NCBI GenBank assembly: GCA_030390025.1
Contig: CM059432.1
Coordinates: 77,936,001 to 78,000,000 of the forward strand
Direction of reading: 5' to 3'
DNA length: 64,000 nucleotides
From: Squalus acanthias
Lineage: Eukaryota
Shown here: positions 10,589 to 59,410 of the stretch, one piece after another
Position numbering within the stretch: position 1 is the first letter of the stretch
How the letters are laid out: every line of letters begins with the position of its first letter
Program-made: the position numbers and the translations under genes
The notes under the pieces: generated by a model
The model's database searches: none
The model's input: only the letters and a program-made list of their open reading frames with translations
Told to the model about the DNA's origin: nothing

Positions 10589-11748
10589 TAACATAGGAAC
10601 AGGAGTAGGCCATTCAGCCCCTCAAGTCTGTTCCGCCATTCAATGAGATCATGGCTGAGCTGCGATCTAACTGCATATACCCGCCTTTGGCCCATATATC
10701 CCTTAATACCTTTGGTTAACAATAAAGCTATCAATCGCCAATTTAAAATTAACAATTGATCTAGCACCAATTGCCATTTGCGGAAGAGAGATCCAAACTT
10801 CTACCATCCTTTGTGTGTAGAAGTGTTGCCTAATTTCACTCCTGAAAGGTCTGGTTCTAATTTTTAAGACTATGCCCCCTACTCCGAGAATCCCCAACCA
10901 GCAGAAATAGGATAGATAGAGAGAAACTATCTGTTCCCCCCTGAATATCCTGAAAACTTCGATCAAATCACCCCTTAACCGTCTAAATTCTAGGGAATAC
11001 AACCCTAATTTGTGTAATCTCTCCTCGTAACTTAACCCTTGAAGTCCGGGTATCATTCTGGTAACCCTACGCTGAACTCCCTCCAAGGCCAATATATCCT
11101 TCCTAAGGTGTGGTGCCCAGAACCGCTCACAGTACTCCAGGTGTGGCCTCACCAGGGTTTTGTACAGCTGCAGCATAATTTCTACCCCCTTGTATTCTAG
11201 TCCTCTAGATATAAAGGCCAGCATTCCATTAGCCTTTTTGATTATTTTCTGAACCTGTTCATGACATTTTAATGATCTATGTACCTGGACCCCCCCCAAA
11301 GTCTCTTTGGACATCCACTGTTTTTAGCTTTTCACCATTTAGAAAGTACCCTGTTCGATCCTTTTTAGGTCCAAAGTGGATGACCTCACATTTGCTTACA
11401 CTGAAATCCATTTGCCACAGTTTTGCCCATTCACTTAATCTATCAATATCCCTTTGTAATTTTATGCTTTCATCTACACTGCCTGCAATGCCTCCTAGCC
11501 TTGTGGCATCGGCAAATTTGGATATATTATTTTCTATGCCATCACCTAAGTCGTTAATAAATTTTGTGAATAGTTGAGGCCCCAACACAGACCCCTGCAG
11601 GACACCACTAGTCACATCCTGCCAATTTGAGTAGCTACCCATTATCCCTACTCTCTGTCTCCTGCCGCTCAGCCAATTTCCTAACCAGGTCAATAATTTG
11701 CCCTCAATTCCGTGGGCTTCTACTTTAGATAACAGTCTCTTATGTGGG
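10589..11748 (-). mobile_element. CR1 LINE, 3' part of ORF2 and tail
   Basis: [25 protein letters not shown] and LYKTLVRPHLEYC in ORFs 11277-11777 and 10703-11314. Confidence 0.92.
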
Positions 11749-16608: not shown

Positions 16609-17022
16609 TAAAAACAGAAAATGCTGGAATACTCAGCAGGTAAGGCAGCATGTGTGGAGGGAGAAACAGAGTTAACATTTCAGATCGATGACCTTTCGTC
16701 AGAACTGGAAAAAGTTAAAGACGTCACAGATTTTAAGCAAGTGCCGGGGCAGGGAAAGGGGGAGGGGAGGAAAGAACAAAAGGGTAGGTCTGTGATAGGG
16801 TGGAAGGCAGGAGAGATTAAATGACAAAAGGTATGATTGTACAAAGCAAAAGGAGATGGTAATGTGACAAGTAAAGAAACAAAAGATGGGTCTAGAAGAG
16901 GTGTAAATGGGAATGGCAGAATCATCAACAGCTGTCATCTGAAAAAATAGGGGCAGAGGTTATCGTCTGAAATTGTTGAACTCGATGTTGAGTCCAGAAG
17001 GCTGTAAAGTGCCTAAACGAAA
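16609..17022 (-). mobile_element. Penelope-like element (PLE), 3' end and terminal repeat; piece 1 of 3
   Basis: Encodes ..FRLGTLQPSGLNIEFNNFR (end of the GIY-YIG domain); terminal sequence homologous to 55807-55941. Confidence 0.88.
16670..16706 (-). ncRNA. Minimal type-I hammerhead ribozyme motif (PLE-associated)
   Basis: AGUU-CUGACGA-A-AGGUC.AUC.GAUCU-GAAA-UG-UU-AACU: catalytic boxes, 5-bp helix II, helix I AGUU/AACU. Confidence 0.75.
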
Positions 17023-17781
17023 CACAGTGTGGACCTGAGCGGGAGCGGTGACACAAAGGGAGCTGAGAGGAGAAGGCCCAGAACACAGCATGGACCCGAG
17101 CGGGAGCAGGTGACACAAAGGGAGCTGAGAGGAGAAGGCCCAGAACACAGCATGGACCCGAGCGGGAGCGGTGACACAAAGGGAGCTGAGAGGAGAAGGC
17201 CCAGAACACAGCATGGACCCGAGCGGGAGCGGTGACACAAAGGGAGCTGAGAGGAGAAGGCCCAGAACACAGCATGGACCCGAGCGGGAGCGGTGACACA
17301 AAGGGAGCTGAGAGGAGAAGGCCCAGAACACAGCATGGACCCGAGCGGGAGCGGTGACACAAAGGGAGCTGAGAGGAGAAGGCCCAGAACACAGCATGGA
17401 CCCGAGCGGGAGCGGTGACACAAAGGGAGCTGAGAGGAGAAGGCCCAGAACACAGCATGGACCCGAGCGGGAGCGGTGACACAAAGGGAGCTGAGAGGAG
17501 AAGGCCCAGAACACAGCATGGACCCGAGCGGGAGCGGTGACACAAAGGGAGCTGAGAGGAGAAGGCCCAGAACACAGCATGGACCCGAGCGGGAGCAGTG
17601 ACACAAAGGGAGCTGAGAGGAGAAGGCCCAGAACACAGCATGGACCCGAGCGGGAGCGGTGACACAAAGGGAGCTGAGAGGAGAAGGCCCAGAACACAGC
17701 ATGGACCCGAGCGGGAGCAGTGACACAAAGGGAGCTGAGAGGAGAAGGCCCAGAACACAGCATGGACCCGAGCGGGAGCGG
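17021..17781 (+). repeat. Tandem array of about 12.5 x 61 bp at the CR1 5' end
   Basis: Unit GAGCGGGAGCGGTGACACAAAGGGAGCTGAGAGGAGAAGGCCCAGAACACAGCATGGACCC, nearly invariant. Confidence 0.97.
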
Positions 17782-18197
17782 CAGCAGCGGCTTAAAGGGA
17801 GCTGAGAGGCGGCTTAAAAAAAAGTGAAGTCACAGGAGAGCAGGAAGGTGATTGGTCTTTTGCTCTCTAGGTTAGGTAAGTGGATTAAATTCAGAGCTGG
17901 GAGAGTATTAACTACTTATAACTTTATTGAATTAATAACAAACTAAATTAACTAATTAAAACTAAAAATTAAATGTAAAAATAATCGTTTGAATGAGGCA
18001 GAGTATAAATCGAGGGGGAGGTCCAGAGAGAGTGCAGACCGGAGCAGCGGCGGCAGCGAGGAGACGGAGTACCTCCAGCGAAAACAACAATAAAAGCAAC
18101 AACTGCAAAACAGCTAAAGTGACGTCACAACCAGGGAAGTAGCCGATTGGTGAGTAGCTGTTAAGTGTTTCTAGTTAATAGTCGATTAAGTAAAGAC

Positions 18198-19137
18198 ATG
18201 GCAGGGTAGCCCAGTCCCGTAGAATGCACTTCCTGTGCCATGTGGGGACTCCAGGAAGCTTCCCATGTCCTGGACAACCAAATTTGCAGGAAGTGTCGTC
18301 AGCTGGAGGAGCTCGAGCTCCGGGTTTTGGAGCTTGAGCAGCAGCTGGCATCACTGCGGTGCATCCGTGAGGCTGAGAGCTTCGTGGATAGCACGTTTGA
18401 GGAGGTGGTCACCCAGCAGATAAAGAGTGTACAGGCAGAAAGGGAATGGGTGACCACCAGAAAGAAGAGGCGGACCAGGCAGGTAGTGCAGGAGTCCCCT
18501 GAGTGCATCTCGCTCTACAACCAGTATTCGGTTCTGAGTACTAGTAAGGGCGATGGTTCCTCTGGGGAGAGCAGCCAGAGCCAAGTCTGTGGCACCACGG
18601 GTGGCTCAGCTGTACAGGGGGGGGAGGAAGAAGAGTGGGAAAGCAATAATGGTAGGGGATTCGATAGTTAGGGGAGCAGACAGGCGTTTCTGTGGCCGCA
18701 GACCTGACTCCAGGATGGTATGGTGCCAGGGTCAAGGAGGTCACTGAGCGGCTGCAGGACATTCTGAGGCGGGAGGGTGAACAGCCAGAGGTCGTGGTCC
18801 ATATCGGTACCAACGACATAGGTAGAAAGAGGGATGAGGCCTGCAGGCAGATTTCAGGGAGCTAGGAAAGAGATTAAAAAGCAGGACCTCAAAGGTAGTA
18901 ATCTCCGGATTACTCCCGGTGCCACGGACTAGTGAGTATAGAAATACGAGGATAGCGCAGATGAATGCGTGGCTGGAGAGATGCTGCAGGAGGGAGGGCT
19001 TTAGATTCCTGGGGCATTGGGACCAGTTCTGGGGGAGGTGGGACCTGTACAGGTCGGACGGGTTGCACCTCAACTGAGCCGGGACCAATATCCTCGCAGG
19101 GAGGTTTGCTAGTGCTGTTGGGGAGGGTTTAAACTAA
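18198..19137 (+). pseudogene. CR1 ORF1: zinc finger/leucine zipper plus SGNH esterase-like domain
   Basis: CTSC..CRKC, LEELELRVLELEQQLASL, VGDSIVRG, VVHIGTND, DGLHLN; disrupted. Confidence 0.88.
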
Positions 19138-22100
19138 TTTGGCAGGGGGATGGGCACCAGGATGTAACATTAGAAAGGGGAAAAAAAGTGCTCAAAGGAT
19201 TGGGAGAGGCAGAGAGCACTAAAGTAAGAAATAGTAAGGTATTAGGTGGAGTCCAACTAAGAGAGAATACAGGATGGTCTAAGATGGGTTTATTGTGTAT
19301 GTATGTGAACGCACGAAGCATAGTAAACAAGTGAGCTGCAGGCACAAATAGCCACATGGGAATATGATGTTGTGGCAATAACTGAGACCAGGCTCAAAAA
19401 AGGGCAGGATTAGGTATTAAATATTCCTGGTTATAAAGTGTTCAGGAAAGATAGGAGGTGGTGTGGTAGTATTGGTCAAGGAGAATGTTACAGTGCTGGA
19501 GAGGGAGGATGTCCTGGAGGGGTCAAGGACACAATCTATATGGCTAGAGTTAACAAATAATAGAGGTGCCATTACACTACTAGGTGTATTCTATAGACCA
19601 CCAAATAGTGGGAAAGATAATGAGGAGCAAATTTGCAGAGAAATTACAAAAAGGTGCAAGTAACAATGGGGGACTTCAACGATCCTAATATAGACTGGGA
19701 TAGTAATAGTGTTAAGGGCAGAGAAGGGGAAGAAATTCTGATGTGCGTTCAGGAGAAATTTCTTGATCAGTATGTTTCTGGCCCGACGAGGGAGGAGGCA
19801 TTGCTGGATCTGGTTCTGGGGATAAAGGTAGGTCAAGTGGAGCAAGTGTCAGTAGGTGAGCACTTAAGGAACAGTAATCATAGTATAAGGTTTAGATTAG
19901 CTATAGAAAAGTATAGAGAGCAATCTAGAGTAAAAATGTTTAACTAGGGGAAGGCCAATTTCAGTGGGATGAGAACAGATCTGGCCCAGGTAAACTGGAA
20001 TCAAAGATTGGCAGGCAAAACTGTAATGGAACAATGGGCTGCCTTTAAAGAGGAAATAGTTCAGGTATAGTTGAGGTACATTCCCACTAGGAGGAAACAT
20101 ATAGAAACATAGAAGATAGGAGCAGGAGTAGGCCATTCAGCCCCTCGAGCCTGCTCCGCCATTCAGTGAGATCATGGCTGATCATCCAAATTCAGTACCC
20201 TGTCCCTGCTTTCTCCCCATATCCCTTGATCCCTTTAGTTTTAAGAAATATATCTAACTCCTTCTTGAATATATTTAATGAATTGGCCTCTACTGCCTTC
20301 TGTGGTAGAGAATTCCACAGGTTCACCACTCTCTGGGTGAAGAAATTCCTCCTCATCTCAGTCCTAAATGGCTTACCCCTTATCCTTAGACTGTGACCCC
20401 TGGTTCTGGACTCTAGTGGGAATGTACCTCAACTATACCTGAACTATTTCCTCTTTAAAGGCAGGGCAACTAAAGTTAGGGCTCCCTGGATGATGAAAGA
20501 GATAGAGAATATGAAGCAGCAGAAAAAGAGCGCGTATGACAGATGTCAGGTTGCAAATACATCGGAGAATCAGGCTATATATAGAAAGGTCAGAGGAGAA
20601 GTGAAAGAGAAAATAAGAGGGGCAAAGAGAGGGTATGAGAATAGAATGGCAGCCAACGTAAAAGGTAATCCAAAAGTCTTCTATGGACGTATAAATAGTA
20701 AAAGGGCAGTAAGAGGAGGGGTGGGGTCGATTAGGGACCAAAAAGGAGACCAATGCATTGAGGCAGAGGGTATGGCTGAGGTACTAAACGAGTACTTTGC
20801 ATCTGTCTTCACCAAGGAAGAGGATGCTGCCACAGACATAGTAAAGGAGGAGGTAGTGGAGATACTTGATAGGATAAAAATTGATAAAGAAGAGGTATTA
20901 GAAAGGCTGGCTATACTTAAAGTAGGTAAGTCACCAGGAGCGGATGGGATGCATCCTTGGATGCTGATGGAATTGAGGGAGGAAATCGCTGACGTACTGG
21001 CCATAATATTCCAATCCTCCATAGATACGGGGGTGGTGCCAGAGGACTGGAGAATTGCAAAGGTTACACCATTGTTCAAAAAAGGGTGTAAAGATAAACA
21101 CTAGCAACTGCAGGCCAGTCTGTTTGACCTCGGTAGTGGGGAAGCTTTTAGAAACAGCAATCAGGGACAAAATTAACAGTCACTTGGGCAAGTGTGGATT
21201 AATTAAGGAAAGCCAGCACGGATTTGTTAAAGGCAAATCGTGTTTAACTAACTTGATTGAGTTCTTTGATGAGGTAACAGAGAGGGTTGATGAAGGTAAT
21301 GCAGTTGACGTAGTGTACGTGGATTTCCAAAAGACGTTCGACAAAGTGCCACATAATAGGCTTGCCAGCAAAGTTGAAGCCCATGGAATAAAAGGGACAG
21401 TGGCAGCATGGATATGGAATTGGCTTAGTGATAGGAAACAGAGAGAGTAGCAGTGAACGGTTGTTTTTCGGACTGGAGGAAGGTATACAGTGGTGTTCCC
21501 CAGGGGTCGGTTCTAGGACCACTGCTTTTCTTGATTAATATTAATGACTTGGACGCGTACAGGGCACAATTTCAAAATTTACAGATGACACAAAACTTGG
21601 AAGTATAGTAAAGTGAGGAGAAGAGTGATAGACTTCAGGAAGATATAGACAGGCTGGTGAAATGGGCGGACATGTGGCAGATGAACTTTAACGCAGAAAA
21701 AAATGTGAAGTGATACATTTTGGTAGAAAGAATGAGGAGAGGACATATAAACTAAATGGTACAATCCTGAAGGTAGTGCACGAAGAGAGAGACCTGGGGG
21801 TATGTGTTCACAAATCGTTGAAGTTGGCAGGGCAGGTTGAGAAAGCAGTTAAAAAGGCTTATGGGATCCTGGGCTTCATGAATAGAAGTATATAGAGTAC
21901 AAAAGTATGGAAATTATGATGAACCTGCATAAAACACTGGTTCGGCCCCAACTGGAGTACTGTGTCCAATTCTGGGCACCACACTTTAGGAAGGATGTGA
22001 AGGCCTTAGAGAGGGTGCAGAAAAGATTTACAAGAATGATTCCAGGAATGAGGGACTTCAGTTACGTTGATAGACTGGAGAAGCTGGGGTTGTTCTCCTT

Positions 22101-27260: not shown

Positions 27261-27643
27261 AACCTGAGAGGGAGCGAGAGCGGAACCTGAGGATATAAAG
27301 AGCGTGGCAAAGCGAGGCCAGAGAGCAGAGGCAGCGGACCTGAGAGGGAGCGAGAGTGGAGCCTGAGGATATAAAGAGCGCGGCAGGGCGAGGCCCGAGA
27401 GCGGAGGCAGTGGACCTGACAAAAAAAACAAGGAGTGATATCACAGGAAAGCAGGGAAGTGATTGGTTGGTCAGTATTTCTCTCTATCTTGGGCATTGGT
27501 TTAAATTAAGAGCCGGGATTAAAAACTAAATGTTCAAAAAGAGGGAGCTGATTGGTGAGTATCTGGTAAGTGTTTTTACTTGGCTTTCTTAAAGTTTTTA
27601 AGTTTATCCAGCTAGGTTAGTAAATAGTCTGTTAATTAGAGGT

Positions 27644-28587
27644 ATGGCAGGGCAGCTCACACCCATGAAATGCACATCCTGTGCCATGTCCTGGACACCT
27701 CCCGTGGTCTGGACGACCACATGTGCGGGAAGTGTCGCCAGCTACAGCAGCTCAAGCACCGGGTTACGGGGCTTGAGCGGCGGCTGCAGTCACTGCTGTG
27801 CATCCGCGAGGCTGAGAGCTACGTGGCTAGCACGTTTCGGGAGGTGGTCACCCCGCAGCTTAAGAGTGTGCAGGCAGAGAGGGAATGGGTGACCGTCAGA
27901 CAGAAGAGGAGAACCAGGCAGGTAGTGCAGGAGTCCCCTGAGCCCATCTTGCTCACCAACCAGTATTCGGTGCTGAGTACTAGTGAGGGCGATGGTTCCT
28001 CTGGGGAGTGCAGCCAGAGCTAAGTCCACAGCACCATGGAAGGCTCAGCTGCACAGGCAGGGGGGAAGAGGAGAGGGAGAGCAATAGTGATAGAGGATTC
28101 AATAGTTAGGGGAGCAGACAGGCGTTTCTGTGGCCGCAGACATGACTCCAGAATGGTATGTTGCCTCCCTGGTTCCAGGGTCAAGGATGTCACTGAACGG
28201 CTGCAGGGCATTCTGAGGGGGGAGGGTGAACAGCCAGAGGTCGTGGTCCATATCGGTACCAACGACATAGGTAGGAAGAGGGAGGAGGTCCTGCAGGCAG
28301 AGTTTAGGGAGCTAGGAAAGAGGGTAAAAATCAGGACCGCAAAGGTAGTAATCTCCAGATTACTACCAGTGCCCCGTGCTAGTGAGTACAGAAATAGGAA
28401 GATAGAGCAGATGAATGCATGGCTGGAAAGATGGTGTAGGAGGGAGGGTTTCAGATTCCTGAGGAATTGGAACCGTTTCTGGGGGAGGTGGGACCTCTAC
28501 AAGCCAGACGGGTTGCACCTCAACGGGAACAGGATCAATATCATCGCGGGAGGGTTTGCTAGTGCTGTTGAGGAGGGTTTAAACTAG
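27644..28587 (+). pseudogene. CR1 ORF1: zinc finger/leucine zipper plus SGNH esterase-like domain
   Basis: MAGQLTPMKCTSC..CGKC, IEDSIVRG, CCLPG, VVHIGTND, DGLHLN; one frameshift and one stop. Confidence 0.9.
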
Positions 28588-31530
28588 CTTGGCAGGGGAA
28601 TGGGAACCTAAGTATAGAGTCAATAGGGAGGGAAGAAAAACTGGAATTGGAAAACAAAAATGTAGAAAGTAAATTGGAAGGACAGAGGAATCAAGGGCTA
28701 GATAGTAGTCAACAAGGAGGTTTGCCTGTACTAAATGGTATATACTTCAATGCAAGGAGTACAGCGAACAAGGCAGATGAGCTGAGGGCACAGGTAGATA
28801 CTTGGGACTATGATATTATAGCTATTACAGAGACGTGGCTGAAAGAGGGACAGGTATGGCAACTCAACATTCCTGGTTACAGGATTTTCAGACAGGATAG
28901 AGAGGGAGGTAAAAAAGGGAGGGGGGGTCGCGCTATTGATTGAAGAAACTATTACAGCTGTGAGGAGGGATCAAACGAGGCCATATGGGTCGAATTGAAA
29001 AACAAAAAAGGGGCGATCACACTGCTGGGAGTGTACTACAGACCCCCAAACAGTGAGAGGGAGATAGAAGAACAAATATGTAGACACATTTCTGAGAAGT
29101 GCAAAAACTATAGGGCAGTAATAGTAGGGGATTTCAACTACCCCAATATTAACTGGGATAAAATTAGTGTGAAGGGTATAGAGGGTGTGGAATTCCTAAA
29201 ATGCATCCAGGAGAACTTTTTTAGTCAGTATGTAGCAAGCCCAACAAGGGAGGGGGCGGTTCTGGACTTAGTTTTAGGGAATGAAGCTGGGCAGGTAGAA
29301 GGCGCATCAGTGGGAGAGCATTTTGGTGCTAGTGACCATAATTCTGTTAGGTTTAAGGTAATTATGGAAAAGGACAAGGATAGATCAGGAATAAAAATTC
29401 TAAATTGGGGAAAAGCAAATTTTGCTAAGCTCAGAGGGGATTTAGCCATAGTGGACTGGAAACAGCTACTTGAAGGTAAATCAGTGTCAGAGCAGTGGGA
29501 GGTATTCAAGGAGGAGATCCAAGGGTTCAGACCAAACATGTGCCCTTAAAGAAAAAAGGTGGGACTAACAACTCTAGAGCCCCCCTGGATATCTAGAGAC
29601 ATATAGGGTAGGATAAAGAAAAAAAGGGAGGCGTATGACAGATACAGAGGGCTAAATACTCCAGAATTTTTTTTTTTTTTTTTTAAAGAGGAGTACAGAA
29701 AGTGCAGGGGGGCAATTAAAAAGGATATTAGGAAAACAAAGTGAGAGCATGAAAAATTCTTGGCAAGTAAAATCAAGGAAACCCAAAGATGTTTTATAAA
29801 TATATTAAGAGTAAGAGGATAACTAAAGAAAGGGTAGGGCCTATTAGAGATCATGAGGGTAATGTGTGTGTGGAGGCGGGAGATGTCAGTAGGGTTCTTA
29901 ATGAATACTTTGCGTCGGCTTTCACAAAGGAGAGGGGCGAAGCAGACATTGCTATCAGGGGGAGGAGTGTGAAATATTAGATGAAATAAACACAATGAGA
30001 GAGGAAGTATTAAGGGGTTTAGCAGCTTTAAAAGTGGATAAATCCCCAGGCCCGGATGAAATGTATCCCAGGCTGTTAAGCGAAGCAAAAGAGGAAATAG
30101 CAGAGGCCCTGACCATCATTTTTCAATCCTCTCTGGCTTCAGGTGTGGTGCCGGAGGACTGGAGGACTGCTAACATGGTATCCTTGTTTAAAAAGGGAGA
30201 AAAGGATAGACCGAATAATTACAGGCCAGTCAGCCTAACCTCAGTGGTGGGAAAATTATTGGAAAGAATTCTGAAAGACAGGATAAATCTTCATTTAAAA
30301 AGACACGGGTTAATCAAGGATAGTCAGCACGGATTTGTTAAGGGAAGGTCGTGTCTGACAAACTTGATTGAATTTTTTGAGAAAGTAACAAGGAGGGTAG
30401 ATGAGGGTAGTGCGTTTGATGTAGTGTATATGGACTTTAGCAAGGCTTTTGATAAGGTTCCACATGGCAGATTAGTCACGAAGTTAAAAGCCCATGGGAT
30501 CCAGGGCAAAGTGTCAAGTTGGATTCAAAATTGGCTCGAAGACAGGAAGTAGAGGGTAATGGTTGATGGGTGTTTTTGTGACTGGAAGGCTGTTTCCAGT
30601 GGGGTTCCGCAGGGCTCAGTACTAGGTCCCTTGCTTTTTGTGGTATATATCAATGATCTAGACTTGAATATAGGGGGTATGATTAAGAAGTTTGCAGATG
30701 ATACTAAAATCGGCTGTGTGGTTGATACTGAAGAAGGAAGCTGTCGACTGCAGGAAGATATCAATAAATTGGTCAGGTGGGCAGAACAGTGGCAAACGGA
30801 ATTCAATCCGGAGAAGTGTGAGGTAATGCATTTGGGGAGGACTAACAAGAAAAGGGAATACACATTAAATGGTAGGACACGGAGTAGTGTAGAGGAACAA
30901 AGGGACCTTGGAGTGCATGTCCACAGATCCCTGAAGGTAGCAGGCCAGGTAGATAAGGTGGTTAAGAAGGCATACGGAATGCTTGCCTTTATTAGCTGTG
31001 GCACAGAATACAAGAGCAGGGGGGTTATGCTTCAACTGTATAAAACACTAGTTAGCCCTCAGCTAGAGTACTGCGTGCAGTTCTGGTCACCACATTACAG
31101 GAAAGATGTGATTGCACTAGAGAGGGTGCAGAGGAGATTTACAAGGATGTTGCCGGGAGTACAGAATCTTAGCTATGAGGAAAGACTGGACAGGCTGGGT
31201 CTGTTTTCCTTGGAACAGAGGAGGCCGAGGGGGAACATTATTGAGGTGTATAAAATTATGAGGGGCATAGATAAAGTGGATAGAAAGGACCTATTTCCCT
31301 TAGCAGAGGGGTCAAAAACCAGGGAGCATAGATTTAAAGTAATTAGTGGAAGGTTTAGAGGGGATTTGAGGGGAAATTTCTTCACCCAGAGGGTTGTGGG
31401 GGTCTGGAACTCACTACCTGAAAGGGTGGTAGAGTCAGGAACCCTAACCACATTTATAAAGTACTTGGATGTGCACTTGGGATGCTCTAACCTGCAGGGC
31501 TATGGACCAAGAGCTGGGAAGTGGGATTAG
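28578..31530 (+). pseudogene. CR1 ORF2: AP endonuclease plus reverse transcriptase
   Basis: [59 protein letters not shown]. Confidence 0.95.
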
Positions 31531-32298
31531 GCTGGATAGCTCTTTGTTGGCCGACACGGACACGATGGGCCGAAATGGCTTCCTTCCGTGCTGTAACTTT
31601 CTATGATTCTATGAATATTGAATTAGGTTTATTATGGTTTTATCCACTTGAGGTACTGTTTTTAATGTCTTGTGAACCTGAATCCTATAAATCTCTGTTC
31701 TTCCACATCCCCAGTTTAAAATATAATTATCACATTTTTTTAAAACCAAAATGCACTACAGTACCTCACATTTTACTGACATTGAATTCCATTTACCACT
31801 TTTGTTGCCAATTCTACCATTTTATCAATATCCCCTTGCAGCTTCCTTTGGTTCTCATAATTATTTACTGTGGCTGCTATTTCAGTATTGTCTGCAAATT
31901 TGGACAACACTCCCTCTAGCCAGATATCCAAATCATTAATATACAGAGTGTACAGAAGCAGCCCCAGAACAGAACGTGTAGGAAACTGCTACCCACTTCT
32001 AACTACCCTGAAAAACTGCCCTTAACTCCTACTCTTGCTTCCTCCCTTCTCACTAGTTTTTAATCCAGTGCAGCATTGTTGCTTATTCAAGTTTGATACT
32101 TTTAACTTAAAAAAAAGCTTTCAAAAGTTTGGTACAGATAAGTGAAAATGTATTATAACCACACACTTAACATATATTATGCAAACCAATAAACAAGTTC
32201 TGTGTTTATACAATTTTTTGTTCCTTCTTATATCACATGACTGTTCTCAAAACATTTTTTCATACTGCTGCATTTCACAAACTTTTGACCATTTTTTT

Positions 32299-35750: not shown

Positions 35751-38700
35751 AGAATCATAGAGGGGCAGGGAGAGCAGAATAGAAATGTGGTAGTGATAGG
35801 GGATTCTATAATTAGGGGGATAGATAGCATCCTCTGCAGCCAAGAACGAGAATCTCGAAGGGTGTGGTGCCCAAGGGATATCTCGTGGCAACTGGAGAGG
35901 AATTTGGAAAGGGAGGGGTAAATCCAGCTGTCGTGGTCCATGTCGGAACAAACGATGTGGGTAAGAACAGAGAGGAGGTCCTGCTGAGGGAATATAAGGA
36001 GTTAGGAGCTAAATTTAGAAGCAGGACCTCGAGGGTAATAGTCTCTGGATTATTGCCCGAGCCACGTGCAAATTGGCATAGAAACAGTCAGATCAGGAGA
36101 ATTAACAACGTGGTTAAAGGGTTGGTGTGGGAAGGAGGGGTTCCTTTTCATGGGACACTGGCACCAGTACTGGGACAGAAAGGAGCTGCACCGATGGGAC
36201 GGGCTCCACCTGAACCGGGATGGGACCCGTGTCCTAGCAAAAAGAGTAAATAGGGAGGTGACAAAGGCTTTAAACTAGTAAGACGGGGGAAGGAATCTAC
36301 AAGAAATTAAACCAGCCTAAATATAAACAAAACAGGAAAGGAGAGCATAGGAAGGAGTAAAGTAAGGGAGGACATTGATGACCAGGGAATAAATAGAGTT
36401 ATAGAACAGGAGTTTAAAAAGATGGTTAAAAATAAAGTGAGAGGAACTGCTATTAAAAATGAGTTAATCTGTCTGTACAGCAATGCACAGTGTCTGTAAT
36501 AAAACAGGAGAGCTGGAGGCAATCATGCGTTGGGAGGAACCAGACATAGTAGGGATTACTGAGACATGGCTACAGAAAAAGCAGGACTGGGAATTAAATA
36601 TTGCAGGGTATAACATATTTAGAAAAGATAGAGAGGGGGAAAAGGGGAGGTGGAGTAGCTGTACTTATTAGGGATAACATAATGGCAGTAGAAAAAAAGT
36701 GACACAGCTATCAGCAAGACAGAAATAGAATCCATGTGGACAGAGATAAAAGATAATAAAGGATTATTCACACTAATAGGGGTAGGCTATAGACCACCTA
36801 ATAGGGGAAGGGAGGTGGAGGAAGAAATATGCAAACAAATTAGGGAAATGAGTAAAAATCATAGAATAATAATCATGGGGTATTTCAACTATCAGATATT
36901 AATTGGACAGAAGAGGTAGGTAAAGGGGATAAGGGAATGGAGTTCCTAAAAAGGGTACAGGACTCCTTTCTAACCCAGTATGCAAAAAAGCCCAACAAGG
37001 GAGGAATCACTATTGGATCTAGTAATGGGGAATGAACCAGAGCAGATAAGAGAAGTAAAAGTAGGGGAACATCTAGGCAATAGTGACCATAATATAATAC
37101 GCTTTAAGATAATAATTGAGAAGGACATAGGTATGACAAATACCAGGATAATAGATTGGAGAAAAGCTGATTGAGGGGCTGAGAATAGCACTTGGGAAAA
37201 TAAAATGGACAACAGTATTGGCAAACAATGATGTAGAACAGCAATGGGAAACATTTAAAACGGTGTTCAACAGAGTCCAGGAAAAATATATTCCGCTAAT
37301 AAACAAGAATAAGCTAAACACTAATGAGACACAGTGGATGAATAAAGCCATTAGGGAAAATTTGAGGGTAAGGAAAGAGGCATACATTAAGTACATGGGC
37401 AGCAGGGGAGAGCATGATAAGGGAGAATATGAAGGGATTAGGACAGAAGTCAAAAAAATAATTAGGAAGGCAAAGAGGAACTATGAAATTAAATGTTCAA
37501 GGAACATAAAACAAAATAGTAAAATATTTTACAGGCAAATAAATAAAAAAAGGAAGGTCGGGATGGGAATAGGGCCACTAAGGTATGGAGAGGATAATAC
37601 CACAGGCAGCAATAGAGAGATGGCAAAGATAGTAAATAATTACTTTGCTTCAGCATTTACCAGGGAGATAGAACAGGTGCAGATGACATTGGATGATGAG
37701 ATTAGTAAATGAGTTAACTGCATTTAAAATAAAATAAGGAGATATACTAAATAAACTAATGAAGCTCAAAAAGGACAAAACCCCTGGTCCAGATGAAACA
37801 TAGAAACGTAGAAGATAGGAGCAGGAGCAGGCCATTCAGCCCCTCGAGCCTGCTCGCCATCAATGAGATCATGGCTGATCATCAAATTCAGTACCCTGTC
37901 CCTGCCTTCTCCCCATATCCCTTGATCTCTTTAGCTTTAAGAAATATATCTAACTCCTTCTTGAATATATTTAATGAATTGGCCTCTACTGCCTTCTGTG
38001 GTAGAGAATTCCACAGGTTCACCACTCTCTGGGTGAAGAAATTCCTCCTCATCTCAGTCCTAAATGGCTTACCCCTTATCCTTAGACTGTGACCCCTGGT
38101 TCTGGACTCCCCCGCCATCGGAAACATCCTTCCTGCATCTAGTCTGTCTAGTCCTGTTAGAATTTTATAAGTTTCAATGAGATCCCCTCTCATTCGTCTA
38201 AACTCCAGCGAGTATAAGCCCAATCGACCCAATCTCTCCTCATACGTCATTCCTGCCATCCCAGGTATCAGCCTGGTGAATCTTCGCTGCACTCCCTCCA
38301 TGGCAAGAACATCCTTCCTCAGATAAGGCAACCAAAACTGCACACAATACTCAAGATGTGCACACAATCACCAAGGCCCTGTACAACTGCAGCAAGACAT
38401 CCTTGTGCCTGTACTCGAACCCTTTCGCTACGAAGGCCAACATACCATTTGCCTTCTTAACCGCCTGCTGCACCTGCATGCTTACCTTCAGCGACTGGTG
38501 CACAAGGACACCCAGGTCTCGTTGCACTTCACCTTCTCCCAATCTATTGCCATTCAGATAATAATCTGCCTTCCTGTTTTTGACACCAAAGTGGATAACC
38601 TCGCATTTATCCACATTATATTGCATCTGCCATGCTTCTGCCCAATCACCCAACCCGTCCAAATCATACTGGAGTTTCTCGGCATCCACCTCACGGCACA

Positions 38701-40350
38701 CTCCCACCCAGCTTTCTGTCGTCTGCAAACTTGGAGATATTACATCCAATTCCCTCGTCTAGATCATTAATATATATTGGATTACATCCGTGCATTTTAA
38801 AAGAATCTAGGGAAGAAATAGCAGAGGCATTACTACACACATATTTAGTAATTCGTTAGAAAAAGGTGTAGTGCCAGAGGACTGGCAGATAGCTAACGCA
38901 ATACCTATATTTAAGAAGGGAGATAGAACATGTCCAGGAAACTATAGGCCAGTCAGCTTAACATCAGTGGTAGGAAAAATAATAGAATCCCTACTAAAGG
39001 AGAAAATAGAAAACATTTAAAAACGAAAAATATAGTAAATACTCAGCATGGATTTCAAAAGGGAAAGTCTTACTTGACCAATCTAATTGAATTTTTTGAA
39101 GAGGTAACAGAGAGAGTAGACAATGGTAATGCAGTAGATGTAATTTATCTAGATTTTCAAAAGGCCTTCAATAAGGTACCACATAATAGACGAATGAATA
39201 AGGTCAGGGAATGCAGAGTCAGAGGACAAGTAGCAGAATGGATAGTTAGCTGGCTGCAAGACAGAAAGCAGAGAATGGGGTAAAGGGTAGCTATTCAGAG
39301 TGGCAGAAGGTGGGAAGTGGTGTTCCAAAAGGATCAGTGCTAGGACCACTGTTGTTCACAATTTATATTAATGATTTAGACTTTGGAATCAAAAACACAA
39401 TTTCTAAATTTGCGGATGACACCAAATTGGGGGGCGGGGTGGGCGGAGAGATAGTCAATACTGAGGAGGACTGCAACAAATTACAGGAAGACATTAATAA
39501 ACTTGCAGAATGGACATATAATTGGCAAATGAATTTAAACACAAATAAATGTGAGGTATTACATTTTGGTAAGAAAAATAGGGAGGTCACATATTACTTG
39601 GAAAATAAGAATCTAAATGGGGTAGAGGAGCAAAGGGATCTCGGAGTATAGATACACAAATCACAAAGTATCGACACAGGTTAACAAGGCCATAAAAAAA
39701 AAAAACAAGCACTAGGGTTTATTTCTAGAGGGATAGAATTGAAAAGTCGAAGTTATGCTAAACTTGTATCGAACCTTGGTTAGACCACACTTAGAGTAGT
39801 GTGTGCAATTCTGGTCGCCATATTATAAAAAGGATAGAGAGGCACTGGAGAGGGTGCAGAGAAGATTTACAAGGATGATACCAGAAATGCGAGGGTACAC
39901 CTATCAGGAAAGGATGAACAGGCTGGGTCTCTTTTCTTTTGAAAAGAGAAGGCTGAGGGGTGACCTAATAGAGATCTTTAAAATCATGAAAGGTTTTGAT
40001 AGAGTAGATACAGAGAGAGTGTTTCCACTTGTGGGGAAGAGCAAAACTAGAGGCCATCAATATAAGATAGTCACCAAGAAATCAAACTGGGAATTCAGAA
40101 GGAACTTCTTTACCCAGAGAGTGGTGAGAATGTGGAGCTCGCTACCACAGGGAATGGTTGAAGCGAATAGTATAGATACATTTAAGGGGCGGTTAGATAA
40201 GCATATGAGGGAGAAGGGAATAGAGGGTTATGCTGATAAGGTTAGATGAGAAAAGATGGGAGGACGCTCAAGTGGAGCATAAACACTGGCATAGACTGGT
40301 TGGGCCGAATCGCCTGTTTCTGTGCTGCATATCCTATACAATCCTATGTA
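35751..40350 (+). mobile_element. CR1 LINE from the ORF1 esterase region to the 3' tail, with nested insertion
   Basis: VIGDSIIRG, VVHVGTND, DGLHLN, ITETWL, YRPP, SDH, DFQKAF, KFADDT. Confidence 0.92.
37795..38778 (-). mobile_element. Nested 5'-truncated CR1 from the younger subfamily
   Basis: Interrupts the host at KTPGPD|GLHP; WQMQYNVDKC..HLEYCVQFW..FFTQRVVNLWNSLP. Confidence 0.92.
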
Positions 40351-56489: not shown

Positions 56490-59410
56490 CTGTGCAAGGG
56501 CAAAGAATGCAAGGGCATCCTCAAGTACCCATCAAACTCCCTTTTAAAATTATTTATGGAATCAGCTTCCACCACCTTTTCAGGTAGGGCGTTCCAGATC
56601 ACGACAACTCGGAGTGACAAAAAACTCCTCCTCTCCCCTCTAGATCTTTTGCCAATGATTTTGAATCTATGACCTCTAGTTATTGACCTACTCGCCAGAG
56701 GGAATAACTTTTCTCTATCTACAATTTTGTATCCATACCGCTACTTTCCCCTTAATTCCATGGGCTTCCACTTTCTTAATAAGCCTCCTGTGTGGCACTT
56801 TGTCGAATGCCTTCTGAAAGTCCATATATACATCTACTGCACTACCTTGATCAACCTTCTCTGTTACATCATCAAAGAATTCAATCAAGTTGGTCAGACA
56901 CGATTTGCCTTTCACAAATCCATGCTGGCTCTCCTTAATTAACATATGCCTTTCCAAATGAAAGTTTATTATGTCCCTGATAATAGTTTCCAATGACTTC
57001 CCCACCACCAATGTTAAGTTGACCGGCCTGTATTTTCCTGGTTTATCCCTCTCCCCTTTCTTGAATAGTGGTATAACATTAGTAACTCTCCAGTCTGCCA
57101 GCCCTACTCCTGTATCCAATGAGGATTGAAAAATGACCAATGCCTCTGCTATTTCTACCTTTGCTTCTTTCAACAACCTAGGATGCATTCCATCTGGACC
57201 AGGTGACTTACCAACTTTCAGTAATGCTAATCTTTTTAATACGCCTTTTCTATCTATTACTATCCTACTTGTAACTTCCCGCTCCTCTTTTAGTGTAACC
57301 TTCACATCATCCGCTTCCTTTGTGAAGACAGATACAAAGTACTCATTTAATACTTTAGCCATGTCCTCTGCTGCTACATGAAAATTTCCCTTTGGGTTCA
57401 TAATAGGTCCAATTTTTTCCCTAGCTAACCACTTACACTTTATATGTTTTAGGGTTCAATTTAATGTTGCCTGCTAATCTTTTCTCGTAACCTCTCTTTG
57501 CATCCTGTATTAACTTTTTCAATTCACTCTTGTACTTTCCATAATCTTCCGGGTCATTAACTGAATCTTGCTCCTGACATTTGTCATAAGCCTCCTTTTT
57601 CTGTTTTATTTTAACTTTTATTTCCTTTGTCATTAGCTTTGGATGCTCTACCTTATCCCTTCAAAGGAATATGCCGAGTTTGCACCTGAACTATCTCTTT
57701 CCCGAATGCCCTCCATTGCTCCGTTATTGCTTTACCCTGCAATCGCCTTTTCCAATCTACCTATGCTAGGTCCCTTCTTAAATCAATGAAGTTAGCTCTT
57801 TGATATTTTCTGGTCTCTTTCCATAATTACTTTAAACCGAATTATGTGGCCATCACTGTTACCTAGATGATCTCCTACTGTAACACACTCCACTTGTCCT
57901 ACTTCATTTCCCAGAACCAGATCCAACACTGCTTCCTTCCTTGTTGGACTGGAGATATATTGATCGAGAAGGTTCTCCTCTACACATATCAGAAATTCCT
58001 CCCCTTCCCTACCCTTAGCACTATATTTTTCCCTGTCTATATTAGGGTAATTATACTACTACTCTATTTTTGTTACACACCTTTGAAATTTGCCAACAAA
58101 CTTCCTCATCTATCTCCTTCTCACTATTTGGAGCTCTATAAAAAAAAACTCCCAACAATGTAACAGCTCCCCTTTTGTTGCTCAACTCAAGCCAAATAGA
58201 TTCAGCACTCGAACCATCCAGTATATCCTTTCTATTTAGAGCTGTAACTTTTTCCTTCTCTATCATTCCTGAATACTTGATAACCAGGAATATCAAGAAC
58301 CCATTCCTGGCCTTTTTTGAGCTATGTCTCTGTTAAATGCAACCACGTCATAATCCCATGCATCAATTTGTGCCTGCAGCTCACCAACCTTATTAGTTAT
58401 ACTATGGACATTGACGTACATACAATTTAATACCTCCTTCGTCACTTTTGCTATTTTCCCTCAATTTGATCCCTGCTATTATTGGGATATTTCAAATTTT
58501 ACTGCTGTTTATATCTCTATCATCTGATCTCATTTCTGTTCCTTTCTGCTAATTTCTAGTTCCCCTCCCCCAGCCAAATTAGTTTAAACTCTTCCCAACA
58601 GTTCTCGATAACCTCTCAGCGAGAACATTGGTCCCAGCTTTGTTCAAGTGCAACTCGTCCATCTTGTACAGGTGCCCCTTCCCCCAGAATCGGTCCCAAT
58701 GCCCCAAGAATCTGAAACCAACCCTCCCTCCTGCACCACTTCTCCAGCCACACATTTACCTGCATTATCTTCCTGTTTCTATACTCACTAGCACATGGCA
58801 CTGGGAATAATTCCAAGATTACTATCTTTGAGGTCCTTTTCCTAGCTCCTGAAACTGTGCCTGAAGGACCGCAAAACTTTTTCTACCTATGTCATTGATT
58901 CCAACATGGACCACGACTTCTGACTGTTCCCCTTCCCCTCGCAGAATGTCCTACACCTGCTTAGTGATATCATTTACCCTGACACCAGGGAGGCAACCTA
59001 TCATTTGGGAATCACGTCTGCGGTTACAGAAACACTGGTCTATGCCCCTAACTATCGAATCCCCTATGACTATTGCATTTCTACTCTTTTTCCAGCGTGC
59101 AGTCAAATCTCCCGTGGTGCCTGGGGTTTGTCACTCACTGCATTCCTCTAAGAAGTCGTCACCCTTCCCAGTATTCAAAACTGAAAACCGGTTAGCGAGT
59201 GCACTGGCTTGGAGATTCCTGCACTACCTGCGTCTTCCTCCTACCCTGTCTGGTGGTCACCCACTCCCCACTTCCTGCACCTTCTGTAAGTTGTGGGGTG
59301 ACCACCTCCTGGAAAGTGCGCTCGAGTAAACTCTCCGACTCCGCAAACTTCGAAACTCAGATCTGGAGCTCAAGCAACTGGCGGCACTTCTTGCTTACAT
59401 GGTTATCCAT
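56490..59410 (-). mobile_element. CR1 LINE with ORF1 and a deleted ORF2
   Basis: CRQL zinc-finger region, GDSIVRG, VVHVGIND, DELHLN, YVNVHS, KSPGPDGMHPRLL, QHGFVKGKSCLTNL, DFQKAFDKVPH. Confidence 0.9.

Follow-up and report, generated by a model that had tools for sequence, protein, structure and literature searches.

A conserved U_UUA_AAC heptamer at the ORF1-ORF2 junction of esterase-type CR1 elements and its likely role in programmed -1 frameshifting

In most vertebrates, retrotransposons of the CR1 group predominate according to passages of a survey (PMC13343379), and the translation of the second open reading frame (ORF2) of long interspersed nuclear elements (LINEs) is treated as an open question in passages of reviews on the subject. 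In L1 and SART1, ORF2 is reached by reinitiation, which for L1 is described as AUG-independent (passages of PMC5972666, PMC1965478 and PMC3708506). The Dictyostelium elements TRE5-A and TRE3-A need a -1 frameshift for ORF2, as stated in a passage of a review (PMC5911963), and a frameshifting LINE therefore has a precedent in print. U_UUA_AAC is counted among the heptamers most prone to shifting, and shifting in one plant virus depends on a stop codon 3 nucleotides (nt) past the site (both in passages of PMC5009743), while a canonical -1 signal is described as needing a stimulator 5-9 nt downstream (passage of PMC3542737). Here, we report the analysis of a 64,000-nt stretch of Squalus acanthias DNA, referred to as the window (GenBank assembly GCA_030390025.1, contig CM059432.1, positions 77,936,001 to 78,000,000, forward strand), and in particular of a near full-length CR1 LINE within it, copy B (27262-31614, + strand), in which ORF1 meets ORF2 at this same heptamer. 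The junction was confirmed as real and conserved, and programmed -1 frameshifting is its likely function.

Positions 28576-28587 of copy B read GGT TTA AAC TAG. The last two codons of ORF1, for Leu and Asn, together with the T that precedes them form the slippery heptamer T_TTA_AAC in X_XXY_YYZ register (28578-28584, +), and the ORF1 stop TAG (28585-28587, +; TAA or TAG across families) adjoins it directly, just as an earlier note on this DNA had described. That note had also claimed the same heptamer and stop for every CR1 of the window that retains the junction, and this was borne out at all four ORF1 C-termini found by tblastn. Besides copy B, which belongs to family F00, these are copy A of family F01 (19128-19137, +; heptamer at 19128-19134, stop TAA), the divergent copy C of family F04 (36269-36278, +; heptamer at 36269-36275, stop TAG) and an older copy D (58579-58588, - strand; heptamer at 58582-58588, stop TAA). 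Around 46% of the aligned ORF1 residues differ between F04 and F00. TTTAAAC is common as a word, with 29 occurrences in the window on both strands, yet its placement at every ORF1 end of the window means that it is not there by chance.

The linker of copy B (28588-28742, +) is open only in the -1 frame, in which neither a stop nor an ATG occurs between the heptamer and the YFNARS motif of the endonuclease (codon 55, 28743). Linkers are unalignable between families past about 9 codons; for the four window linkers, alignments past about 25 nt were no better than shuffles in 6/6 pairs (the real score was reached by 14-186 of 200 shuffles), in agreement with what had been noted earlier. Copies A, C and D have acquired stops in the -1 linker through decay, so the open -1 frame is to be regarded as a property of the family. 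Among the 30 copies most similar to copy B, itself included, 28 carry the exact heptamer and 26 keep the -1 frame stop-free over the 60 codons scored, and a Met precedes the motif in none of the 27 copies in which the motif could be located.

Conservation across the genome (3.7 Gb) was assessed using the upstream DGLHLN motif as the anchor, which avoids selecting for the heptamer, and 17,326 sites matched. When the first 90 of 100 listed sites were fetched, the heptamer lay near the expected place in 67 and at the exact spacing in 48, the remainder being decayed or carrying insertions or deletions (indels). These 90 loci and those collected earlier resolved into 8 multi-copy clusters and 9 singletons, and three more families were obtained via targeted patterns. 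T_TTA_AAC followed by TAA or TAG was kept in all 11 multi-copy families sampled. The codon before TTA was GGT, GCT, ACT or CAT across families and AGT (Ser) in copy D; hence the residue varies and the final T is constant.

At the exact spacing, the exact heptamer was found at 11,042 DGLHLN-anchored sites and a reversed control pattern at 0. Variants at this spacing amounted to 728 in total, of which 254 had a first base other than T, 26 had CTN, 93 had TTG and 355 had AAT. The variant rows inspected (all 26 and 93, and the first 100 of 254 and of 355) belonged to many different families and have the appearance of changes acquired once the copy had inserted. Free synonymous substitution at these codons, which the earlier note had named as evidence that would speak against frameshifting, was not observed, as no amplified family has CTN, TTG, AAT or a preceding non-T base. 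One family was suspected of a non-T first base and was rejected, T being present in 98/100 of its listed copies. By comparison, other invariant Leu columns of ORF1 use more than one codon in 9/11 cases.

Seven similar TTG junctions on G000:C17 (~48.7-63.6 Mb), five of them within 0.8 Mb, probably stem from one mutated copy by segmental duplication, and the tandem repeat of unit ~26 nt at L111-L119 (G000:C1:16798031-16801811) is a chance match to the DGLHL pattern. A random 400 kb beside the window contained 5 more ORF1 ends, three with the in-register heptamer, one in which it was displaced by a longer G-run and one in which the junction was lost; the 64-kb window itself has 4 ORF1 ends vs these 5.

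The frame of ORF2 relative to the heptamer is equally constant. The endonuclease lies in the -1 frame, with no stop between it and the heptamer, in 10/10 resolved families, family FT being too decayed to resolve. This frame relation is kept over linkers of 8 different lengths among the 10 families (the N of the N-x-R-S motif falls at codon 47-89), and the other frames contain 4-13 stops in the 6 families whose majority sequence is in register. Upstream of the heptamer the -1 frame is closed within 1-5 codons in 8/8 clusters, which would confine the shift to the heptamer or just before it. A conserved ORF2 ATG with stops back to the heptamer, the other arrangement that the earlier note had set against frameshifting, was found in none of the 10 resolved families.

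Two very young families, FZ and FY (median pairwise difference 0.7% and 1.7% over 300 nt), each have 3/10 copies intact (L243, L250 and L251 in FZ; L255, L256 and L261 in FY). The intact FZ copies encode an ORF1 of 308 amino acids (aa) and have a -1 frame that is open for 968 codons with its first Met at codon 166; the corresponding values for FY are 315 aa, 983 codons and codon 255. The endonuclease starts near codon 47-54 in these copies, ahead of the first Met, and initiation at an AUG would therefore truncate it; no usable ATG is present. The FY esterase has DGLHLC instead of DGLHLN, and FY is the family covered by the RNA reads described below.

Taken as a programmed -1 frameshift site, the junction would operate as follows. 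Most ribosomes would terminate at the adjacent stop and release the ORF1 protein (ORF1p, ~310 aa), and a minority would slip back by one base as tRNA-Leu and tRNA-Asn re-pair from UUA/AAC to UUU/AAA, after which decoding would resume at CUA. The product would be a Gag-Pol-like fusion of ~1,270-1,300 aa comprising zinc finger, esterase, linker, APE endonuclease and reverse transcriptase (RT), made beside free ORF1p, and the predicted junction peptide in the family of copy B is G-L-N-L-A-W-Q-G rather than the conceptual F-K-L. The pause that slippage calls for would not be accounted for by local RNA structure. On the sequence evidence, we consider it likely that the conserved U_UUA_AAC of the esterase-type CR1 junction is such a site and yields an ORF1-APE-RT fusion, in support of the proposal made in the earlier note.

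Homologous proteins extend the comparison to deeper divergence. In a set of 68 homologs of at least 297 residues, 53 end in LN or IN, and those that are named include shark, ray, bony fish, frog and turtle proteins. A U before TTA forbids E, Q, K, M and W, which have no U-ending codon, as the preceding residue. One of these five residues stands before the terminal LN or IN in 1/53 proteins, compared to 31/53 and 28/53 at the next two positions; with similar ends collapsed, the counts are 0/22 vs 27/110 (Fisher p=0.004). The residue before Leu-Asn takes 11 identities, both polar and non-polar. Three database proteins, two from a ray, read through the junction as F-K-L and have G-x-G after it at the same offsets. 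At the DNA level, an amniote-like CR1 in a metagenome record (L264; 34% ORF1 identity) reads GTT TTA AAC TAG, its linker being decayed. It is one of 6 metagenome loci, 2 of which are amniote-like CR1 (one without the ORF1 end) and 4 of which encode other SGNH proteins; the viral contig collection searched contained no relative.

Downstream of the heptamer lies a G-rich tract (28591-28604, +), a run of about five G that starts 9-11 nt after the heptamer and reads G-x-G in the -1 frame. G occupies +11 to +15 past the heptamer in 10-12 of 12 family representatives; copy B has four G, 26/30 relatives have five, and an F06 sister has five G from +9. The tract may be an RNA signal or may code for a G-x-G hinge in the -1 frame, and a hinge would imply translation upstream of any start codon. 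The tract pointed out in the earlier note is therefore present and conserved, but its suggested role as a stimulator found no support in a local hairpin, a universal G-quadruplex or a covarying long-range partner. G-quadruplexes stimulate frameshifting in constructs (passage of PMC3919603). As a universal feature a G-quadruplex was rejected here, the two-tier motif being present in 0/14 F04 and 0/10 FY copies and in most copies of the other 9 families; a three-tier motif occurs in 9/136 copies.

Long-distance pairing with the 3' tail, of the type known from barley yellow dwarf virus, gave a signal that base composition could explain. The tail was the best of 869 aligned windows for pairing with the sequence downstream of the junction, but it was also the best for 25/25 shuffled queries, and it is the most pyrimidine-rich of 651 windows, which is why the pairing appears to be driven by composition. 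The pairing energy was reached by 54/1000 shuffles and was weak in the intact family FZ, and matched families paired with the tail no better than mismatched ones (p=0.40 and 0.24). The sequence offers two candidate stimulators, namely the stop that adjoins the heptamer and the short run of G.

A number of observations weigh against frameshifting and have to be set beside this evidence. No stable local fold was found 3' of the heptamer (24 folds of 12 representatives, z -1.8 to +2.4 vs shuffles, with pseudoknots outside the model of the program used), and the fusion product is known here as a prediction from sequence. The genome-wide junction figures are counts of copies and not of independent events. 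Taken by itself within this genome, the family-level synonymous test is modest, and the case for silent-site conservation gains strength from the protein-level comparison: a single codon is used throughout the 8 clusters at 19/54 invariant columns, the third base is unchanged at 9/29 four-fold columns, and a further Asn is likewise AAC in every cluster. The homologous proteins are related to one another, the same helix is poor in E, Q, K, M and W at further positions too (2-4 of 53 at -6, -7 and -9), such that protein structure could contribute to the residue bias before Leu-Asn, and the decayed L264 is the only non-chondrichthyan junction read at the DNA level. In addition, an in-frame ATG precedes the endonuclease motif in 5/10 resolved families, at the non-homologous codons 3, 16, 51, 57 and 58; the earlier claim of a -1 frame open without ATG thus stands for copy B and its family but does not extend to every family. 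Lastly, a TAATG stop-start overlap with its ATG in the ORF2 frame is present in 12/17 copies of family F02 and absent from the other 10 families.

The last of these points fits translation of ORF2 as a separate protein by termination and reinitiation on the ORF1 stop or immediately past it, either without need of an AUG, which has been proposed for L1, or on a UAAUG of the SART1 kind, with the heptamer serving as termination or reinitiation context. L1 ORF2 tolerates loss of its ATG (passage of PMC1965478), SART1 uses UAAUG (passages of PMC5972666 and PMC3708506), and an open linker is expected under reinitiation as well. It would nevertheless leave unexplained why X_XXY_YYZ is kept down to its silent first base and why ORF2 is constantly in the -1 frame. 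An intact F03 copy has no ATG, CTG, GTG, ACG or TTG in the -1 frame ahead of the endonuclease, and the UGGGA reinitiation motif is unconserved upstream (0/10 FY, 1/13 F03 and 1/16 F01 copies, though 14/14 F04 and 10/10 FZ). The UAAUG subfamily itself retains the heptamer, which is intact in the F02 TAATG copies (L141, L155, L158, L178 and others), and this subfamily may be a lineage that uses both routes or is switching between them. Most families have no stop-start, but the UAAUG of one subfamily fits reinitiation, which weakens the contrast with L1-type reinitiation drawn in the earlier note. On balance we consider reinitiation an unlikely explanation of the junction.

It is very improbable that the heptamer arose as a side effect of shared ancestry and of constraint on the protein end of ORF1 (Leu-Asn-stop), with ORF2 translated by an unrelated route such as internal initiation. 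The Leu-Asn end of 53/68 homologs, with IN counted, would be expected on this explanation; furthermore, the two main family groups differ at only ~40% of four-fold sites, and about one third of synonymous columns are invariant in any case. The residue before the end is nevertheless free to take its 11 identities and still avoids those that lack a U-ending codon, most other invariant Leu columns change codon, and the last 7 ORF1 residues lie outside the match to the LINE esterase structure 4C1B. In intact FY copies, moreover, the first in-frame ATG lies ~200 codons past the endonuclease start.

Two RNA runs were searched for changes at the junction; their species label matches that of a DNA run in which 59% of the words of the window stretch occur, and the species may differ. 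Between 24% and 31% of each run was covered, with reads in both orientations. Over the young FY junction, 343 and 572 reads showed no indel at ≥1% and no splice joint. The reads are a weak negative against splicing or slippage because of the partial coverage, the possible other species and the two read orientations. A splice acceptor after the ORF1 stop was rejected, there being no polypyrimidine tract and no joints in the RNA reads. The remaining explanation, that splicing or polymerase slippage at the junction produces the fusion or a monocistronic ORF2 message at the RNA level, could draw on the unstable length of the flanking G-runs in genomic copies (a count by hand puts roughly half of 100 listed F03 copies off the modal length) and on the copies that fuse the ORFs, but it is scarcely credible given these reads, modal G-run lengths that keep the standard layout in F03 and F06, and the inability of a slip in the downstream G-run to bypass the stop.

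The G-runs also accounted for two layouts that appeared to depart from the rule and were rejected. F06 seemed to have a 0-frame (readthrough) layout in 5/7 copies; across the genome, the modal length of the G-run is less by one base, which puts the layout back in the -1 frame (21/30 new loci were modal). F03 seemed to have fused ORFs in its majority sequence, and its modal G-run keeps the standard layout. In F03 (e.g. L130, L151 and L198) a run of eight G stands just before the heptamer and often changes in length, one extra G being sufficient to fuse ORF1 to ORF2. The database gene models P0023, P0031 and P0057 show a fused ORF1-ORF2 reading.

Copy B is dead, with stops and frameshifts in both ORFs. 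Its 5' edge is set by long matches of 4/29 queried relatives, which start at 27261-27263, and its 3' end by two units of TTCTATGA at 31599-31614, with the ORF1 and ORF2 tblastn matches lying inside these bounds; like the tails of related copies, this end consists of short tandem repeats and has no poly(A). ORF1 (27644-28587, +) comprises an N-terminal CxxC zinc-finger region and an SGNH esterase as assigned from sequence, Pfam and PDB comparison, and is broken by a frameshift near 27690 and a premature TAA at 28021-28023. It matches Pfam Lipase_GDSL_2 (E=7.5e-13), the alignment of family copies matches the ORF1 esterase in PDB entry 4C1B (E=3.7e-35), and the CxxC pairs are present in the intact ORF1s of related copies. 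ORF2, in the -1 frame (28578-31530, +; several breaks in copy B), encodes the APE endonuclease, with YFNARS at 28743, and the RT, and matches Pfam Exo_endo_phos, Exo_endo_phos_2 and RVT_1. The nearest named proteins are from sharks and rays. A passage of the survey (PMC13343379) states that chondrichthyan L2s are without ORF1; this and the ORF1 homologs fit the assignment of the element as a vertebrate esterase-type CR1 LINE.

Elsewhere in the window, positions 490-64000 are rich in CR1-type fragments (>60 ORF2 tblastn segments), several of which are nested on the opposite strand (e.g. 20195-20428 and 37891-38777). Three overlapping open frames of 266-289 codons at 16925-17829 (-) are probably simple or tandem repeat. 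At 31567-31614 and at the 3' ends of L165-L262, two tail types follow a common GGCC hairpin, and tail type does not track ORF1 grouping; FY, for instance, has the junction grouping of F00 and the tail of F02, F04, F06 and F07. The mismatch hints at an exchange of modules between CR1 lineages.

If frameshifting holds, the CR1 enzyme would be made as an ORF1 fusion at a fixed ratio, as in retroviruses, and a membrane-binding esterase would be linked directly to the RT. The annotated start of ORF2 and the recognition of intact copies would change, and a site that shifts with no folded stimulator would give the study of recoding a useful test case from nature. More tentatively, and at somewhat less than even confidence, we propose that esterase CR1s across jawed vertebrates produce their RT as a Gag-Pol-like ORF1-ORF2 fusion through a -1 signal kept for >400 million years, with no folded stimulator and consisting of heptamer, adjacent stop and a run of five G to which a protein or the ribosome may bind. 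Full-text searches on frameshifting in CR1 or LINEs and on ORF2 translation in non-LTR elements yielded no paper with this signal described in its title or displayed abstract; the original chicken and turtle CR1 papers and the Repbase notes, which lay outside the scope of these searches, may mention an overlap or propose a shift. The words frameshift and overlap are absent from the main texts of PMC4120745 and PMC13343379, and ORF2 translation is not addressed in the parts of these texts covered. The passages found in PMC3905857, on the structure of the esterase, and in PMC4255032, on the coelacanth, contain nothing on a programmed shift.

In overall layout, the element resembles canonical vertebrate CR1 (CR1 subgroup 7, ORF1 type IVB, in passages of PMC4120745 and of the survey PMC13343379), with a zinc-finger and esterase ORF1, an APE-RT ORF2 and a tandem-repeat tail. 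It shares with L1 and SART1 a bicistronic LINE RNA with a poorly expressed ORF2, and one CR1 subfamily has UAAUG as SART1 does. Unlike L1, in which a 63-nt spacer separates ORFs that give separate proteins, CR1 has its two ORFs overlapping at a slippery heptamer, and a stop-start is missing from most of its families. The 2A/StopGo sequences of CR1, L2, Rex1 and Ingi elements offer another case of virus-like recoding upstream of the APE domain (passage of PMC3708506); 2A, however, works in one frame and mostly in elements without ORF1 (same source), and no NPGP motif was visible by eye in the CR1 linkers examined here. TRE5-A and TRE3-A, which are APE-type non-LTR elements, differ from CR1 in clade and in ORF1. 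Compared to the viral sites, CR1 has no evident stem-loop or pseudoknot 3' of the heptamer (pseudoknots being unmodelled), its 0-frame stop adjoins the heptamer, and a short G-run stands in place of the fold. What it has in common with infectious bronchitis virus (IBV), other coronaviruses and retroviral gag-pol is a heptamer in X_XXY_YYZ register that is identical to that of the coronaviruses, an enzyme ORF in the -1 frame and a predicted fusion of structural protein and polymerase (passages of PMC5009743 and PMC3542737).

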